Source: a virus
Lineage: Duplodnaviria; Caudoviricetes
DNA length: 64,000 nucleotides
Strand: one strand, 5' to 3'
Virus record (IMG/VR): IMGVR_UViG_3300029705_000039
Below are positions 10,787 to 58,339 of the stretch, piece by piece (position 1 is the first letter of the stretch; each line of letters begins with the position of its first letter). The notes under the pieces were generated by a model. It did not search any database. It saw only the letters and a program-made list of their open reading frames with translations, and was not told the origin of the DNA. Position numbers and translations under genes: made by a program.

Positions 10787-10794
10787 TTGTGATT

Positions 10795-10855
10795 GAGGCG
10801 CATACAGCAATCTTTTATGGTATGAATAGCATATTTATAATATAACTGTGCCTCG
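10795..10855 (+). ncRNA. CAGCAA stem module copy 1
   Basis: GAGGCGCA-TA-CAGCAA ... TGTGCCTC-G-TTTT. Confidence 0.6.
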
Positions 10856-11262: not shown

Positions 11263-11328
11263 AAATTTGACAAAAATAAAAAATCATTATATAATATATT
11301 TATAAGGTTGAGGAAAACTCAACCATAT

Positions 11329-11415
11329 GCCCGGATGGCGGAATTGGCGAGACGCGCTCGACTCAAAATCGAGTACATTGATACACTGTGGGTTCAAATC
11401 CCACTCTGGGTACCA
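11329..11415 (+). tRNA. tRNA-Leu(CAA)
   Basis: cloverleaf, loop CTCAAAA, ACCA. Confidence 0.9.
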
Positions 11416-11419
11416 TTTT

Positions 11420-11540
11420 TAGACGTTTACAGCAAATTTTGATAGTAATCAAAGTGTCGTTGGTTCGATCCCAACATTGCAAGCCAATAATTTTGCAGTT
11501 CGCCCAGTAGGTAGGGCATTTGACTAAAAAGAACGTCTAG
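11420..11540 (+). ncRNA. circularly permuted tRNA-like RNA inside CAGCAA stem module copy 2
   Basis: T arm and 3' acceptor+GCCA precede 5' acceptor and D arm; enclosed by TAGACGTT/AACGTCTA. Confidence 0.75.
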
Positions 11541-11556
11541 TTTTATATAATTAAAT

Positions 11557-11647
11557 TGGGGATTGGTGTAATGGCAGCACGGCGGACTCTAAATCCGTGA
11601 GCCCCCTGAAGGCGTAAGTCAGGGTTCAAATCCCTGGTCCCCAGCCA
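11557..11647 (+). tRNA. amber-decoding tRNA (CTA), Gln-like
   Basis: GCGGA-CTCTAAA-TCCGT; U1-A72, G73, CCA; extended variable region. Confidence 0.88.
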
Positions 11648-11654
11648 TTATATT

Positions 11655-11718
11655 TAGACACAACCAGCAAGTTATTTGTATTGCTAATAGAGAATTGATA
11701 CGACTAAATTGTGTCTAG
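11655..11718 (+). ncRNA. CAGCAA stem module copy 3
   Basis: TAGACACAA-C-CAGCAA ... TTGTGTCTA-G-TTT. Confidence 0.6.
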
Positions 11719-11775
11719 TTTAAGTAAAAATATAAGCGCCTATATGGCGCTTTCTTTGTATAAGGAGTGATTCCC

Positions 11776-17998: not shown

Positions 17999-18064
17999 AG
18001 GCGGCCACAGCAATTTTTCAAGCATCTGTTATTGTAGAACTGATATAACTTGAAAGCCGCCTAG
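17999..18064 (+). ncRNA. CAGCAA stem module copy 4
   Basis: AGGCGGC-CA-CAGCAA ... GCCGCCT-AG-TTTT. Confidence 0.6.
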
Positions 18065-18147: not shown

Positions 18148-18263
18148 TCGTGCGTTGGAACGTAGCGATACGGTTTAGGCGAACCACCCATAAAATCGCT
18201 CACGCAGAAAGGGGTACAAGATGATTCCAACCGTCGAAAGAGACCGTTAGCCTTTCAACTTTT

Positions 18264-18379
18264 TAGGCACATACAGCAAAACAGTAGTCCAATTGGGCCG
18301 GTAGCTCAGATGGTAAGAGCATTAGATTGATAATCTGAAGGTCGTTGGTTCGAGTCCAACCTGTTAAATATGTGTCTAG
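18264..18379 (+). ncRNA. CAGCAA module copy 5 enclosing a tRNA-Ile(GAT)-like body
   Basis: TAGGCACATA-CAGCAA ... TATGTGTCTAG; D, anticodon and T arms inside; no CCA. Confidence 0.7.
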
Positions 18380-18520
18380 CAAAACATAACACTTGAGGTT
18401 ATGTTGAGTAATGAAATAATTCCCCGTCCCAAGCCGCGGTGAATTATGGAACTCTAAGGGGGTTTTAGTGTAGAACCACAACTTGGGTAGGCTTAAATGC
18501 CGAAGGAAAAACACTTTTAT

Positions 18521-18639
18521 GGAAACGTGGTGTAACGGTAGCACTTAAACAAGTCGGTATAGGCCGCGGACCGGTCAGCAATCTTTCTTTAGACGATTCT
18601 GCAAAAATTGAGGAGTTGGTTCGAATCCAACCGTTTCCA
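18521..18639 (+). ncRNA. tRNA-like RNA (GCA loop) with CAGCAA insertion between D and anticodon arms
   Basis: GGAAACG/CGTTTCC acceptor, D and T arms, CGATT-CTGCAAA-AATTG; about 48-nt insert. Confidence 0.7.
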
Positions 18640-23135: not shown

Positions 23136-23291
23136 AGCCGAGTAGCCAAGTGGAAAGGCACGGGACTTCGTAAAGTAGTGTAATTGGTAGCAATGTTTCC
23201 GGTTAGCGCGCAGGGGACGGTGTTGGTTCGAATCCAACCTTTACGGCCATGACTCCCGCATTCGCTGGTTCGAGCCCAGCCTCGGCTGCCA
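23136..23291 (+). tRNA. tRNA-Gln(TTG) split in its anticodon by a nested tRNA-like RNA
   Basis: CGGGA-CTT|insert|TGAC-TCCCG; acceptor AGCCGAG/CTCGGCT, GCCA. Confidence 0.85.
23169..23249 (+). ncRNA. nested tRNA-like RNA (81 nt) ending in GCCA
   Basis: CGTAAAG/CTTTACG acceptor, D loop TGGTA, T arm GTTGG-TTCGAAT-CCAAC, 12-nt non-canonical anticodon loop. Confidence 0.85.
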
Positions 23292-24331: not shown

Positions 24332-24421
24332 TGCTAGTATAAATATTAAAAATATGTTGTTTGGTAAAATTTTAGCGGATAGAGGAATCTATCCGCTTAT
24401 TTTTATAGGTAGGTGAAAAAG

Positions 24422-26284
24422 ATGGTTCCATATTCATAGAATATTTATGGGTATCCCTATAGTGTTATTTTAAAAGGCAGCGACATTCAAGCCCAATCAG
24501 GTCAACTTTTAAATAATTCTGAATCTGGGATACTAGAAAATTATAATATAAGTAGATTTCAAAGAATAATTGATGGCGTGATTTCTAAGCTATAGCGAAT
24601 TATTAATAATTAGCGAAATATTTATGAAGAAATTTAGGGAATGAAAAATGGCAAGGGAGCATAGCTACTTAATGATATTTTACATAATAGAAATATTACT
24701 GTAGATGAAAATGGCAATATTAAAGGAATTGCACAAACTTATGAAGAAATGTTTACTGAAGATATAAAAAAGAGAAAAGCGACATTAAAAGAGATGAATG
24801 ATTATAAAGTTCAATATAATCAAGTTATAGAATATATAAATACAGCCTTAAAAAAAGTCAATGTAAACAACTTAAATCCATCTACTTTATAGGACGTTAT
24901 TTCTAAAATAAAAATTAACAATGATAAACAAAGAGGTATCCAAAAATAGATGCTAACCTTATTTGAAGATGAAAATAATGCGAATAGTTTTAGTAAATTA
25001 TTCATGAAATCCGGAACATTATCTAATGATAATCTACGCAAACAATATGCTACATTAATTAAAGATTATAATAACGTTCGTGAGGATTATAAGCGTATTG
25101 CAAAGGATGAGTTGCCGCAAAAAATAGGAAAAGACCTAAATACAAATTTGCAAAAGTTATCTAAAGATTTAGCAGAAGTCTATGACGTAGAATCTGATGA
25201 ATTACGAGAAGCCCTAATAGATTATTTACAGGCGAATATTGATTCATCAGCTGAATTATCAAGTCCCTAGAATTTTACTTTTACAGTTCCAAGAAAAGCA
25301 AAAGGTTTCGAGGCCGTTGAATATACAGCCTCCTTAAGTGTTCCTATTTTAACGCATAATGATTTAGAAAATATTGTTATTTCTGCTATACAAACTGGTG
25401 CTGTTACTGACCGTGTATCTTCGCAAATAAGATGCGAGGTTAAATTTAAAGATCAAGAAGCTTTAACTCGAATTTCAAGAGAAAGATATGATCAAATAAT
25501 TCAAGGTACTTTAAAATTAGAGAAAGAAATTGATTATTTGGCCCTTGATACAGTAACTACTCATGTATCTAATAAAATAGACGATATTATTACTATAATG
25601 AATGAAGACCCTAAAAATGGAAATAAAAAATATAATTTAAAATTTTCAGACAAATTAATCTTTAATGAAACGTATAATGGAGCGGGCGGTCTAGCTAATG
25701 TTAAAATGGAAGGCGGCACTTTATATTCATTAATTAATTTATTACAGGGCGATAATTTAGGTAAGTTAGGCAAAAACCCAAATAATGACAATTTTGAAGA
25801 ATTAATTTTTACCATCCTCAATATGTCTTCTGTATCTAAATTAGCAGGAGATTTAAATAAAATTGAAGTTGATAATTTTATTAAAGCTTTATTAATTTCT
25901 GAAATCTATACTTTAGCATTTAATCCAGAAAGTTTTATTGTAGATTTAGAAACATTAGATGAACGTAATTTATATTTCCATCATATAGATACAATGATTC
26001 TACCTTCTTATAACTTATTACAAAAAACAATAAATTAGTTAGAAGAAATTAAAGAAACCTTACTGACTTCAGAAGGAGCGTAGAATAATTATATAAAAGC
26101 ATCAATTACTCCTAGCACTTCTTATACGGCCTCGTAGTTATATACTCAATATGTTAAGACTCCTAATTTTTAGAACGATCCAGCAGGACAATGGAAAATT
26201 GTGGCAGATTTAATTGCTTCCGACACCGCTATTTCTGTAATGTTGGATATACCAGCTATTTTAGGTTCAGTCGCGGGAAAATAA
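24422..26284 (+). CDS. 620-aa hypothetical protein (12 TAG=Gln), possibly virion-associated
   Basis: single frame with only TAG interruptions, joining ORFs 24950-25270 and 25538-26038. Confidence 0.75.
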
Positions 26285-30950: not shown

Positions 30951-31739
30951 ATGGGATTAATTTATATGCTAACCAGCCCCAGTGGAAGATCTTATATTGG
31001 ATAGACAAAGCGACCCTTTACTATACGATGGAATCAGCATAAAAGAGAGGCGGAAACTGGAAATGATACTCCTCTTTATAAAGCCATACGAAAATATGGC
31101 GCCGATTCTTTTTAGCATACAATATTAATAGAAACAGATAATGACAAATTAAATGAGTTAGAATAGTATTATATTAAATAGTATAATACGTATAATAATG
31201 GTTATAATTGCACTATCGGTGGCGAAGGAAATTGCAAAATTTCTGATGAGACTATTATTCAACTTTGGGAGAGTGGGTTGTGCTCAGCAGATATAGCACG
31301 GCAATTAAATGTATAGGGACATACTATTGAAAATAGAATTAAAAGTCTTTATTCTGATGCTGAAATATAGGAACGTCGATACGCTTCAATTGGGAAAAAA
31401 CTTCAATTAAAAGATAATAATATAAAAACTCTATGGGATTAGGGCTATAGTGTTACTTAGATTTCGGATATATTATCCTATGATAGACATACAGTAAGCC
31501 GTGTTTTATAGAGACTGGGAATTACTCCTGAACAGTTAGAATATTCTAGAAAGGCCCACAGCGGTGATAAGAAAAATTCTCCCATAATACAATATGATAA
31601 AAATGGTAATTTTATATAGGAATGGTTTTCAATTAGTGAAGCGGCGAGACAATTAAATATTCACGCTGGTAATATTTGCAAAGTTCTAAAAAAAGAAAGA
31701 AAAACTACTGGTGGTTATATATTTAAATATAAGGAGTAA
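30951..31739 (+). CDS. GIY-YIG homing endonuclease with HTH and NUMOD1 (10 TAG=Gln; absent from ORF track)
   Basis: MGLIYMLTSPSGRSYIG*T; GYNCT.GGEG; SISEAAR...GGYIFKY. Confidence 0.85.
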
Positions 31740-31741
31740 TT

Positions 31742-32878
31742 ATGATTAAGATTAATGATGTTGATGAATTATTTGAAATGGAGCCTATGCGCTATTGGAG
31801 TCTGCCTTCTGGTCTTACTGATATCGAACGTCAGGAAAAATTAAATATGGCACTTTCTACGGGTGAATATATTTATAGCCTTAAAACAGATGGCAATCTG
31901 ATTCGTGCTGTTATCACTCCTGACCGTTTTGCTCTTCAAACTCGCGGTAGAGGAAGAAATACCGGTGTATTTGGTGAAATTCAAGATAAAGTTTTTTGGG
32001 CAGACGCTATTGCAAATGCTTTTGAAGATACAACCGTTTTAATCGGTGAAGCGTATATTGAGGGTAAAGTAGACCGAGATGTAGGAGCCGTGCTTCGCTC
32101 ATTAACCGATAAGGCAATTGCCCGACAGAAGGGTAATAATGTTGTAAAGTTCCGCATCTTTGATTGCCTTTACTATAATGGTGAAAATCTTCTTTCTACT
32201 CCCATTATTGAGCGCATTAAGTATCTCCCGCAGGCAGTCGAAGCAATTGGACACGAACTTGTTAGTTATGTAAAGTATTATGAAGCCAAGCCTGAAACTT
32301 TCTGGGATAAACTTTCTACTATCTTTGAAAAAGGCGGCGAAGGCGTAGTTCTTTATAAAAAAAGTATGTTGCCTTGCGAAAACCGCACTCCTGCCTGGCA
32401 GACTATTAAGGTAAAGCAAGTTTTGAAGGAACATATTGATTGTTTTATTTATGGTGTAGAACCTGCGGAAAAGAACTACACTGGCAAAGAACTTCCCACG
32501 TGGCAATACTGGATGGATGATAAGACAGGAGAAAAGTTCCTTGGCTCCTATTATCTTAAGTATTGTGATGGCGGTATGATTATTCCTATTTCTAAGGGAT
32601 ATTATTATAATTGGCCTGGTGCAATTAAGTGCGCAGTTTATGATGAAAATCACAATCCTGTTGTTCTTTGTAAATGCTCTGGCCTTACTGAAGAAATGAA
32701 GGCGGCCTTGCGGGATAACTATGATGAATGGCATATGTGCCCTGTAAAGATTGACGGCATGATGATTTCAAAAGATTCAAAAACTGGCTCAATTAGCGTG
32801 CGACATCCGAAGTTGATTTCTATTAGAGATAATGACATTGATATTAATGATTGTCTATTGTCTAAGGTGGTAAAGTAA
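31742..32878 (+). CDS. ATP-dependent DNA ligase
   Basis: KTDG motif I, GEAY, FRIFD, EGVV, K.K, VRHP. Confidence 0.85.
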   Translation: MIKINDVDELFEMEPMRYWSLPSGLTDIERQEKLNMALSTGEYIYSLKTDGNLIRAVITPDRFALQTRGRGRNTGVFGEIQDKVFWADAIANAFEDTTVLIGEAYIEGKVDRDVGAVLRSLTDKAIARQKGNNVVKFRIFDCLYYNGENLLSTPIIERIKYLPQAVEAIGHELVSYVKYYEAKPETFWDKLSTIFEKGGEGVVLYKKSMLPCENRTPAWQTIKVKQVLKEHIDCFIYGVEPAEKNYTGKELPTWQYWMDDKTGEKFLGSYYLKYCDGGMIIPISKGYYYNWPGAIKCAVYDENHNPVVLCKCSGLTEEMKAALRDNYDEWHMCPVKIDGMMISKDSKTGSISVRHPKLISIRDNDIDINDCLLSKVVK

Positions 32879-55260: not shown

Positions 55261-56508
55261 ATGGAATATGTAATCAAACGTGATGGTTCTCAGGTCTTAT
55301 ATAATAAAGATAAAATTTATGAAGCTATTAATGCCGCGAATGAAGAATGTATTCTTAAAGAAGAAGGGTATTTAACATTAGAATCTCTCTATGATGCCTT
55401 AGAGGATATTGATAGTCGTTGCAACGACCATGTGTCTGATATTGGTGTAGAAGAAATTCAGAACATTGTTGAACGTGTATTAATGTCCTATGAACCTGAT
55501 GTTGCTCGTGCTTATATTCGCTATCGTTATATGAAAGAAGTCGCTCGTGAATATAAGGCAGACTTTTTTGAAGCGATTGGCGATAAACTCGCGGCTAAGA
55601 ATGTAGTCAACCAAAATGCCAACGTAGACGAGCATTCCTTCGGCGGCCGCGTAGGCGAAGCATCTGATGCTATGATGAAAGAGTATGCACTTAACTTCTG
55701 CATGTCCAAGATGGCGCGCGAAAATCATTTAAATAATGAAATTTATATTCATGACCTAAGTGCTTATGCAGTTGGGATGCACAATTGCCTTACTGTTCCT
55801 TTTGACCATCTACTTGAAAAAGGCTTCAATACTCGTCAAGTTGATATTCGTCCCGCTAATAGTGTAGATACTGCTTTCCAGTTAGTTGCTGTTATTTTCC
55901 AACTACAATCTCTAATGCAGTTTGGCGGCGTAAGTGCTTCTCATATTGACTGGACTATGGTACCTTATGTAAGAAAGAGTTTTAGAAAACATTGGAACAA
56001 TGGATTAAAATATTTAGCATTTTGGGAAGTAAAAGATGAAGACTATGAAACTGAAAATAAGCCCTTGGATGAATATCCCAATTTTGATGATTATCAAGAT
56101 ATTTATCGGTATGCTATGGAAATGACTGAAAAAGAACTATCCCAAGCCGCAGAAGGCTTATATCATAACCTCAATTCTCTCCAAAGCCGCAGCGGAAACC
56201 AGTTGCCCTTTACCTCCCTTAACTATGGAACTTGCACTCTTCCTGAAGGTCGCATGGTAATTAAGGCTCTACTTGAAGGCTCCATTAAAGGCGTAGGCAA
56301 GCATCATCGCACTCCTATCTTCCCTTGCGGTATTTTCCAAGTCGGCGAAGGAATCAACAAGCATCCTGGCGACCCTAATTATGATTTATTCCAGCTGGCA
56401 CTAAAATCAACTTCTTTACGTCTATATCCCAATTATGCTAATATTGATTGGTCTGGTAATGCAGGATATGATAAAAACGACCCAAAAACTTATTTCTCTA
56501 CCATGGGT
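55261..56508 (+). CDS. nrdD: anaerobic ribonucleoside-triphosphate reductase, exon 1
   Basis: ATP cone VIKRDG, IYIHDL, HNC, QLPFTS; ends ...STMG. Confidence 0.92.
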
Positions 56509-57334
56509 AAGTGCAAACTACAGCTCATGTAAAATCTTTTGAACCTCGCCCGAGGGTGTCTGCGTAAGCAGGCTAACGGTTAGGTCCCACGAGGATGAGA
56601 CCGTGCGAAGATTCGTTATAATATTCATCTCTGTGAGGTGAATATATGGAAGTTTATAAGATTACTAACCTAATAAATGATAAAGTTTATATTGGTTAGA
56701 CAATTCGACCTATTTAGTAGCGTTTTCATCGGCATATAAGCGATGCTATGAATAATATACTTGATACACATTTTGCAAGAGCAATAAGAAAATACGGTCC
56801 AGATAATTGGAAAATAGAAAGTATAGACATCGCTAAAACATAGGAAGAATTAAATCAAAAAGAACAGTATTGGATTAATTATTATAATTCTGTTATAGAT
56901 GGATATAATGAAACAAATGCCATTAGCAAGTGCGGTGGAAATACTTATCAATCTAAAACAGAAGAAGAAATGAAAATTATTAAGGAAAAGATACGAAAAA
57001 CTAAACTTGGTGGTAAAAATCCCATGGCACGAAAAATAAAAAGAACAAATATACAAACTGGAGAAACCGATATTTTTGAAACAGTTATATCTTGTGCCAA
57101 AGCTTGCGGGATACAAAATGGAAAAACATCAATTACCACCCGGCTAAATAAACAAATAACTTCTCCTTATAAAAATACTTGGACTTTTGAATATTATAAC
57201 GAATAACGTGTATCGACTATCCCTGATGAATGTAAGGGAGTAGGACAGGAGATAGGCACCTGTCCGAAGCGGAAGACTATCTTGACAAAGATAGAAGATA
57301 TAGTCAGTGCTGATGGCAACATCAGATAAACATG
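56509..57334 (+). mobile_element. group I intron in nrdD
   Basis: exon ends in U, intron ends in G; splicing restores TMG|CRT; P7-type CGACTA / GATATAGTC. Confidence 0.9.
56646..57206 (+). CDS. intron-encoded GIY-YIG homing endonuclease (4 TAG=Gln)
   Basis: MEVYKITNLINDKVYIG*T...GYN; NUMOD-like tail. Confidence 0.85.
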
Positions 57335-58339
57335 TGTAGAACGGCGAACGGCTGGGATGTAAATGGTTTGGGTCAGCAAAAGGACGGCCGCGGTAATATT
57401 TGTCCTGTAACGATTATTATGCCTACGCTTGCAATGATGGCTTTGGGTGGTGGAGGAGGTCCTTGTGAGGAATTGACACTAGAACACCCAGTAATAGAAG
57501 AGCGTATTAAGAAATTTATGACTCTTCTTGATAAGAAAATCCACGAAGCCAAAGATATGCTAATTGAGCGCTTTGAATATATTTGCCGCCAAAGTCCTGA
57601 CTCAGCCAAGTTTATGTATGAAAATAATACTATGGCAGGCTATGTGCCAGAAGAAGGTATTCGCTCTGCCTTAAAGCATGGAACAGTTGTAATTGGACAA
57701 CTTGGTTTAGCAGAAACCTTAGAAATTTTAATCGGTAAGAATCACACTACTCCCGAAGGTATGGAACTTGCAAAGCGTATTGAGCAGTTATTTAAAGATA
57801 GATGTGCTGAATTTAAGCAACAGTATAAATTGAACTTTGGTGTATATTATACGCCTGCTGAAAACCTCTGCTATACTGCTATGAAGAAGTTCCAAGATAA
57901 ATATGGAACTATTCCTCATGTAAGCGACCATGAATACTTCACTAATAGTATCCACGTTCCTGTTTGGGAAAAGGTTAATGTTCTTGAAAAAATCGATATT
58001 GAAAGCGAACTAACTGGTTATAGTTCCGCAGGCTGCATTACTTATGTTGAACTTGAAAGCGGCATTAAAAATAACCTATCCGCCTTGGAACAAATTGTTA
58101 TCTATGCTATGGATAAAGATATTCCTTATCTTGCTATCAATGTCCCCAATGATACTTGCCTTGATTGCGGCTATACTGATGAATTTAACGACAAGTGTCC
58201 TGAGTGCGGCAGTACCAATATTCAGCAGCTTCGCCGCGTAACAGGCTACTTAACAGGCGACTATAAAACCGCCTTCAATAAAGGTAAACAATATGAAACT
58301 GAAGACCGAGTAAAACATACCGGAAGGATGGAACAGTAA
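57335..58339 (+). CDS. nrdD: anaerobic ribonucleoside-triphosphate reductase, exon 2
   Basis: CRT, TPAENL, YFTNS, CLDC/CPEC, RRVTGYL glycyl loop. Confidence 0.92.
   Translation, partial: CRTANGWDVNGLGQQKDGRGNICPVTIIMPTLAMMALGGGGGPCEELTLEHPVIEERIKKFMTLLDKKIHEAKDMLIERFEYICRQSPDSAKFMYENNTMAGYVPEEGIRSALKHGTVVIGQLGLAETLEILIGKNHTTPEGMELAKRIEQLFKDRCAEFKQQYKLNFGVYYTPAENLCYTAMKKFQDKYGTIPHVSDHEYFTNSIHVPVWEKVNVLEKIDIESELTGYSSAGCITYVELESGIKNNLSALEQIVIYAMDKDIPYLAINVPNDTCLDCGYTDEFNDKCPECGSTNIQQLRRVTGYLTGDYKTAFNKGKQYETEDRVKHTGRMEQ

Follow-up and report, generated by a model that had tools for sequence, protein, structure and literature searches.

Y RNAs and the Ro60 proteins that bind them are found in animals, in some bacteria and in a few mycobacteriophages; what they do is still debated. 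Permuted tRNA genes are known from Cyanidioschyzon merolae, some green algae and Thermofilum pendens. In the C. merolae type of maturation, the transcript is cut at a bulge-helix-bulge motif and ligated into a circle, which RNase P and tRNase Z then open to yield decoding tRNAs.

In the bacterial YrlA RNAs, the 5′ strand of the Ro-binding helix carries the motif GNCGAAN0-1G (PMC4201824). Only the YrlA of Mycobacterium smegmatis has a 7-bp acceptor stem; RNase P cuts this RNA, which gains a CCA in vivo while bound to Rsr (PMC4201824). A survey of jumbo phages reported only TROVE proteins with a tRNA-like partner, and these in a few phages (PMC7824862).

We analyzed a 122-nt element in a 64,000-nt stretch of Caudoviricetes DNA (IMG/VR record IMGVR_UViG_3300029705_000039; hereafter the window). 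An earlier note, made from the sequence of the window, had described it as a circularly permuted tRNA retaining an internal CCA, and had likened it both to algal and archaeal permuted tRNA genes and to YrlA RNAs. Based on the structural, comparative and genomic analyses presented below, the element is best understood as a YrlA-like variant and not as a member of YrlA itself.

Genomic context of the element

The window is a phage-like contig that is TAG-recoded and rich in tRNAs, with 24 of them, including a CUA suppressor, predicted by ARAGORN; many of the ORFs are open only when TAG is read as sense. The element is the second gene of an RNA operon in which tRNA-Leu(CAA), the element, an amber suppressor tRNA and a short RNA with the same kind of terminal stem (the 'handle' described below) are bracketed by a promoter and a terminator:

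11267..11295, + strand: sigma-70 consensus promoter, TTGACA-17-TATAAT, matching at 12/12 positions and heading the four-gene RNA operon
11329..11415, + strand: tRNA-Leu(CAA) with encoded CCA; its 3′ processing would make the 5′ end of the element
11419-11540, + strand: phage Y-like RNA element, 122 nt, with a permuted tRNA-like interior clamped by a terminal stem
11557..11647, + strand: amber suppressor tRNA(CUA), 91 nt, with a long extra arm; an operon neighbor outside the element
11654..11718, + strand: second handle RNA of the operon, TTAGACACAA ... TTGTGTCTAG, with CAGCAA and a short non-tRNA interior
11734..11752, + strand: intrinsic-terminator-like hairpin ending the operon

The adjacency to the amber tRNA to which the earlier note drew attention is real here, but it is not kept in relatives; the homologue at locus L002 sits between tRNA-Pro and tRNA-Gln.

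Several other features of the window deserve mention. ARAGORN predicts a tRNA with a four-base anticodon (agcg) at 23169-23249 that scores only 36 bits with the Rfam tRNA model and may be of the frameshift type or degenerate. The anaerobic ribonucleotide reductase NrdD is encoded in two ORFs (55261-56532 and 57332-58339) that lie about 800 nt apart and correspond to positions 2-268 and 264-562 of the Pfam NRDD model, a layout that points to an intron or to the insertion of a mobile element. A homing endonuclease gene of the GIY-YIG plus NUMOD type, read through 10 TAG codons in frame (30951-31739), is directly followed by a gene for an ATP-dependent ligase-fold protein (31742-32878).

Structure of the element

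Direct reading of positions 11400-11560 recovered every segment of the proposed permuted tRNA, from TCAAA through the final CT, in the places given for them. It also revealed a terminal stem, an unpaired CAGCAA and an upstream TTTGA hairpin, which had gone unremarked. The parts of the element are:

11420..11427, + strand: 5′ strand of the handle terminal stem, TAGACGTT (direct reading, fold and covariation of helix 1)
11430..11435, + strand: unpaired CAGCAA, the handle signature, 2 nt past the 5′ strand of the stem (reading and family comparison)
11438..11453, + strand: anticodon-arm remnant hairpin TTTGA-TAGTAA-TCAAA with a 6-nt loop, UAGUAA; the upstream TTTGA is at 11438-42
11449-53, + strand: 3′ strand of the anticodon stem, TCAAA, pairing with 11438-42 or alternatively with 11519-23
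11454..11458, + strand: variable loop GTGTC, 5 nt (G44, G46, C48; direct reading)
11459..11475, + strand: T arm GTTGG-TTCGATC-CCAAC (reading, alignment to the YrlA model and covariation)
11476..11499, + strand: closed acceptor hairpin, ATTGCAA-G-CCA-ATAATT-TTGCAGT
11476-82, + strand: 3′ strand of the acceptor, ATTGCAA, followed by the discriminator G73 (11483) and CCA (11484-86)
11487-92, + strand: acceptor linker ATAATT, 6 nt (direct reading)
11493-99, + strand: 5′ strand of the acceptor, TTGCAGT, forming 7/7 pairs, one of them G-U
11500..11518, + strand: U8-C9, the D arm GCCC-AGTAGGTA-GGGC (11502-17) and A26
11519..11531, + strand: second copy of the 5′ strand of the anticodon stem, TTTGA (11519-23), then CU and the A-rich 3′ junction
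11532..11544, + strand: 3′ strand of the handle terminal stem, AACGTCTA (11532-39), then G and a U-run (reading, fold and covariation)

The two strands of the terminal stem, TAGACGTT and AACGTCTA, form a helix that is extensible by U11419-G11540 and U11428-G11531, giving 8-10 bp, and the A-rich CUAAAAAG precedes its 3′ strand. Within this clamp, the proposed topology is present: a tRNA-like domain, circularly permuted and with NCCA in its interior, in which the acceptor is fully paired (11476-82 with 11493-99). The set of positions that builds the tRNA elbow is complete on direct reading: U8, A14, G15-C48, G18G19, A21, G46, U54-U55-C56, A58 and G53-C61. RNAfold gives -34.5 kcal/mol for the element (z = -4.24), a value equaled by 0/200 shuffles. 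The element is a tRNA fold with rearranged chain order, in which the end that would be charged is closed into a loop.

The chain break had been assigned to the anticodon loop. It lies instead in the 5′ strand of the anticodon stem, and a closed anticodon-arm hairpin remains upstream. Because TTTGA is present twice, the anticodon stem can be drawn with either copy; nearest-neighbor energies are -28.0 for the upstream hairpin versus -23.9 for the downstream anticodon stem, and both are feasible.

Comparison with YrlA RNAs and permuted tRNA genes

YrlA (RF02553) is the sole non-tRNA Rfam family that aligns to the element, module by module and in the same order, in agreement with the YrlA-like layout seen in the earlier note, although in a permissive search over 501 nt it scored 22.1 bits (E = 0.028), where the threshold is 69. 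In both RNAs the paired chain ends form a stem on the anticodon side, which in YrlA binds protein, and a T arm, a closed acceptor-like hairpin and a D arm follow one another in the same 5′ to 3′ order. Several different Y RNAs occur per genome in both cases, and the partner, here a candidate, has a Ro60 fold, here a predicted one. The 7-bp acceptor of the M. smegmatis YrlA, which is opened by RNase P and gains a CCA, is a precedent for the internal CCA of the element (PMC4201824). The element differs from YrlA in that its score is far below the gathering threshold of 69 bits and its handle, TAGACGTT/AACGTCTA with CAGCAA, does not contain GNCGAAN0-1G. In addition, CCA is already encoded in the element, and the handle family to which it belongs retains the anticodon arm with the nick in the 5′ strand of the stem, has as its partner candidate a DUF2828-vWA protein that is not TROVE by Pfam, and has its genes inside phage tRNA arrays instead of beside rsr/rtcB.

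The likeness to C. merolae-type genes is that the 3′ half lies upstream of the 5′ half, that a short linker (here with CCA) joins the acceptor ends and that the termini pair. However, the termini of the element form a continuous 8-10 bp stem with an unpaired CAGCAA and an A-rich strand, with no 3-4-3 bulge-helix-bulge, and the conserved handle is shared with RNAs that are not tRNA-like. In this case the host is a bacterium, the anticodon loop has degenerated and CCA is lacking in most members of the family.

Homologues and covariation

A search with neighboring proteins identified six related IMG/VR loci. Searches with nhmmer and with a covariance model derived solely from the window detected permuted homologues in L002, L004, L007 and L009. 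A pattern scan of IMG/VR followed by a covariance model (R2) yielded 55 matches at E < 1e-6. As R2 also gives tandem ordinary tRNAs 25-50 bits, raw lists over-count, and matches were filtered for a handle and for acceptor complementarity. After removal of tandem ordinary tRNAs, 32 distinct IMG/VR sequences with a handle and a complementary acceptor stem remained. Homologues thus number about 30, from diverse IMG/VR phages, and the covariance models detect full-length ones in many phage contigs. A second pattern scan detected no further members of the window's own clade beyond L002 and L007. Exact-match scans with the element junction found no copy in the viral or metagenome contig collections, and the sole blastn match to GenBank phages was to the neighboring tRNA-Leu.

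The earlier note had named a lack of conserved pairing in related phages as grounds for rejecting the structure. Pairing is kept, with many compensatory changes. In a model-fitted alignment of 53 distinct homologues, 92.9% of cells are paired, versus 35-45% when partners are slid by 1-3 columns, and 27/29 pairs show changes on both sides. Pairing is 90% in the outer stem, 82% in the anticodon stem, 99% in the T arm, 94% in the acceptor and 100% in the D arm. Double changes occur at all 7 acceptor pairs and at all 8 pairs of helix 1, in which the pair at column 4/189 is G-C in 45/53 homologues. Given that a model-fitted alignment leans towards its model, we carried out an independent check on ten sequences with MAFFT and RNAalifold; the outer stem, the T and D arms and the acceptor hairpin were all recovered, and 18/23 pairs were compensatory. 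These data demonstrate both the fold and that it is conserved. In about 30 diverged phages, each of the five helices has undergone compensatory change, which indicates selection on the tRNA shape itself.

Anticodon arm and chain break

Across 30 family members the 7 nt that precede the 3′ strand of the anticodon stem resemble a genuine anticodon loop, with U33 in 24/30 and a purine at position 37 in 29/30. The 5-bp anticodon stem is usually shared between two strands: the one upstream supplies 2-3 distal pairs and the one that follows the D arm 2-3 proximal pairs, 5-6 in sum. Family members thus amount to complete tRNAs whose acceptor end is sealed and whose anticodon stem is nicked in its 5′ strand; from this nick both chain ends lead into the handle. 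Anticodon loops vary among members and correspond to Gly, Ile, Pro, Trp, Asn, Thr and Asp.

The clade of the window is different in that the loop has shrunk, to 6 nt in the window and to 5 and 4 nt in L007 and L002, respectively. In all three sequences both the upstream and the downstream strand can pair over their full length with the 3′ strand of the anticodon stem, and the three segments co-vary (UUUGA twice with UCAAA, AAAGA twice with UCUUU and UAAGA twice with UCUUA). The homologues that show the doubled strand are:

L007:1501-1622: window-clade homologue with doubled anticodon-stem strand
L002:9691-9813: window-clade homologue with doubled anticodon-stem strand

The doubled complement could be a switch, a site of branch migration or a relic of a tandem duplication (positions 27-76, spacer, positions 1-33). 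Joining the downstream CU to AGUAA gives a canonical loop in the window only, not in L002 or L007.

The CAGCAA handle family

The handle, a terminal stem with an unpaired CAGCAA, is present on at least five elements of the window, including the one studied here, and their interiors differ. We define it as a terminal stem of 7-11 bp whose 5′ strand is followed, after 0-3 nt, by an unpaired CWGCAA and whose 3′ strand is preceded by an A-rich stretch, a description that the element fits. The other handle RNAs in the window are at:

10794-10855: handle RNA
11654-11718: handle RNA, the last gene of the operon
~17999-18064: handle RNA
18263-18379: handle RNA

Dozens more were identified in related phages, always on the strand of the tRNAs and usually followed by G and a U-run. 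The handle stems differ in sequence yet stay paired, and their outer pairs are conserved as (U/A)AGRC...GYCU(U/A)G. Terminal stem, CAGCAA, A-rich 3′ junction, U-run, strand and location in tRNA arrays are common to the element and to the other handle RNAs, which differ in their interiors: short AT-rich hairpins, a permuted tRNA or an unpermuted tRNA-Ile-like body, some only ~40 nt.

The unpermuted body (18264-18378) resembles tRNA-Ile(GAU), has only three acceptor pairs and is enclosed by the handle TAGGCACATA/TATGTGTCTA (18263-18379); it matches positions 5-66 of the Rfam tRNA model at 52 bits, and ARAGORN makes no call there. Nearby, a tRNA at 18521-18639 (Rfam 41.9 bits) has normal acceptor, D and T arms, and a 59-nt insert with CAGCAAUC replaces its anticodon arm, so that the handle motif is grafted into a tRNA in the opposite topology. 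A drum RNA (RF02958; 75.8 bits against a threshold of 43) is located between these two tRNA-like handle RNAs, at 18406-18519. Two complete phages without DUF2828 encode permuted tRNA-like RNAs with closed 7-bp acceptor stems (L136, G011:39627-39747; L137, G014:53220-53347), which have a different terminal stem and no CAGCAA and may be another Y-RNA class.

The CAGCAA-handle family is absent from Rfam 15, and no Rfam model matched at gathering thresholds over 11419-11544. Accordingly, its genes will have been left unannotated or mistaken for tRNA pseudogenes. A full-text literature search returned nothing on permuted tRNA genes in phages, on the CAGCAA handle or on a link between DUF2828 and Y RNAs. 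The handle RNAs are apparently an undescribed, widespread family of phage small RNAs.

The internal CCA and the origin of the tRNA module

NCCA directly follows the 7-bp acceptor stem in 12/32 family members, versus 0.5 expected by chance, and is separated from the other strand by linkers of 4-19 nt. In the remaining 20/32 the loop has 3-12 nt and no CCA, examples being CUUCGG and a loop of just 3 nt, and UUCG and GNRA caps are also seen in relatives with divergent handles. As these 20 members close the acceptor with non-CCA loops, we consider the sealed acceptor end to be a trait of the family. The NCCA enrichment hints at a role for a free or recognizable acceptor end, which a pure 'sealed bait' model leaves unexplained.

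The ordinary tRNA genes of the phage encode CCA and are spaced by 4-8 nt; the NCCA junction therefore resembles an inter-tRNA spacer and fits an origin from tandem tRNAs. The module probably goes back to a pair of tRNA copies in tandem (27-76, spacer, 1-33; tRNA positions), which would explain both the internal NCCA and the 6-nt linker. When re-ordered, the element reaches no more than 75% identity to any of 980 tRNAs from the sampled phages, with best matches to Asn, Thr and Ile. Cues to the parent are mixed, the U1-A72/G73 pattern being Asn-like and the UAGUAA loop Thr(AGU)-like. The window clade keeps the CCA though its acceptor, T and anticodon stems differ completely. Given this divergence and the low identity to tRNAs, the CCA is not simply young, and it may be selected.

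By analogy with the M. smegmatis RNA, RNase P might open the acceptor loop to give a two-piece, CCA-ended mimic. The 7-bp stem, the G73-CCA and the U at position -1 would allow such a cut, which we put forward tentatively and with the odds somewhat against it.

A candidate partner protein

All four near-complete relatives encode a DUF2828 protein of 483-547 residues; no DUF2828 was detected among the larger ORFs of the window. The AlphaFold model of the DUF2828 protein of one relative is of modest quality (pLDDT 64.7). In a Foldseek search of the PDB with this model, the top 13 matches were all Ro60/Rsr/TROVE structures, and the next were at E > 0.05. The leading match was the Deinococcus Rsr (2nvo; E = 1.8e-5, TM about 0.5), and the further Ro60 matches included proteins of Thermus phage phiLo, Xenopus and human. 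A DUF2828 sequence profile found no Ro60 match among PDB chains. From the structural model, we predict a Ro60-like fold for the DUF2828-vWA protein.

Among 47 IMG/VR records, DUF2828 is encoded in 10/11 with a true family member versus 4/36 without one (Fisher p = 1.9e-6, in a small sample and with phage relatedness ignored). The sole family-member record without DUF2828 is a 14%-complete fragment. Of the four apparent exceptions with DUF2828 (the 4/36), two have CAGCAA-handle RNAs directly 3′ of the DUF2828 gene and on the same strand, an arrangement like that of rsr and YrlA:

L146, G020:94916-95182, - strand: short handle RNA after DUF2828-vWA
L147, G035:42421-42478, + strand: short handle RNA after DUF2828-vWA

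Other candidates were also considered. A 623-aa ORF just after the tRNA array (24413-26284), taken as a Ro60 candidate, has no Pfam match. A TROVE Ro60 was rejected as the partner, as TROVE (PF05731) is absent from the four near-complete relatives. A retron-like RNA, an idea raised by the 'AGC' after an a1/a2-type stem, and healing based on RtcB were likewise set aside, as neither a reverse transcriptase nor RtcB was found in the four relatives.

Proposed function and alternatives

We propose that the element is a Y-RNA-like partner RNA, in which a CAGCAA handle for a Ro60-shaped DUF2828-vWA protein carries a permuted tRNA mimic, and assign this reading a probability of about 0.6. As judged from the sequence, the element would be transcribed from the consensus promoter within the operon of tRNA-Leu, element, suppressor tRNA and short handle RNA, and released by ordinary tRNA processing of its neighbors. 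As the covariation shows, its ends pair into the handle, from which the complete tRNA elbow (T arm, D arm, closed 7-bp acceptor and anticodon remnant) grows. The handle is the putative binding site of the DUF2828-vWA protein. The tRNA-shaped module may act as a bait or adaptor that tethers tRNA-handling enzymes or damaged tRNAs to this protein, a role that would parallel that of bacterial YrlA with Rsr.

Alternatively, the element may be a free-standing tRNA decoy or sponge that works without a Ro60-like protein, soaking up host nucleases that target tRNAs, modifying enzymes or an aminoacyl-tRNA synthetase, with a handle that only guards the ends from exonucleases. An intact elbow with all tertiary contacts, a location in a tRNA operon beside the suppressor tRNA on which the phage depends, and anticodon loops that differ from member to member, as a decoy array would show, are all consistent with such a role. 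However, the part of a tRNA that anticodon nucleases usually attack, its anticodon loop, is degenerate in the window clade, the conserved unpaired CAGCAA and outer pairs are superfluous for a mere clamp, and the handle tracks the DUF2828 gene and adjoins it in two records. We consider a decoy of this kind unlikely.

Elements of the partner-RNA reading and of tRNA maturation may also be combined. NCCA-bearing members would be cut by RNase P at 11492/11493 and the linker trimmed to CCA, leaving a two-piece tRNA mimic, possibly aminoacylated, held by the handle on the Ro60-like protein. Members with a full anticodon arm would be sealed at the nick by a phage ligase, and the co-varying doubled strand of the window clade would be a strand-exchange switch between the two states. 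We regard this combination as quite improbable; if true, the ligase-sealed members with a full anticodon arm would be the first permuted tRNA genes on record from a bacteriophage.

A further alternative is that the stem and CAGCAA are an RNase entry site or transcript punctuation, making the element a processing or insulating element of the tRNA operon whose interior is a functionless leftover of tandem duplication. The position of such elements between tRNAs, their U-run flanks and invariable tRNA strand, their highly variable interiors (down to ~40 nt) and the spacer-like NCCA and linker would suit this role. Against it stand the compensatory changes, seen in every one of the five helices among the 30 or so diverged phages, and the 99-100% pairing of the T and D arms; the best identity of 75% among 980 phage tRNAs excludes a recent duplicate. 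We give it little credence.

Finally, we judge very improbable the proposal that this is a true permuted tRNA gene, in which the handle is a cut-and-join signal, the ends are trimmed, a phage RNA ligase seals the nick to form a circle, and RNase P and 3′ trimming open it at the CCA to yield a decoding tRNA. In its favor, algal permuted tRNA genes have exactly this order of parts and this junction of NCCA and linker, the 5-bp stem across the nick in the full anticodon arm of the wider family is an ideal substrate for a duplex-nick ligase, NCCA is enriched (12/32) and an ATP-dependent ligase-fold protein is encoded at 31742-32878. Against it, a bulge-helix-bulge motif is lacking, four relatives yielded no RtcB, anticodon loops of 6, 5 and 4 nt in the window and its two closest homologues give no decoding tRNA, the joining of CU to the loop is canonical only in the window, 20/32 members have no CCA and several of them are capped by UUCG or GNRA tetraloops or a 3-nt loop, and the same handle clamps RNAs without tRNA content. 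The affiliation with algal and archaeal permuted genes suggested in the earlier note is not upheld on these grounds, and we conclude that the element is not a working tRNA gene.

If the partner-RNA reading is correct, the family would offer natural variants with which to probe the purpose of the tRNA module, namely sealed versus CCA-bearing acceptors and full versus degenerate anticodon arms. It would also widen the Ro60/Y RNA system to many phages of gut, rumen and environmental habitats, and would place this system amid phage tRNA operons, here beside the suppressor tRNA of a TAG-recoded phage.
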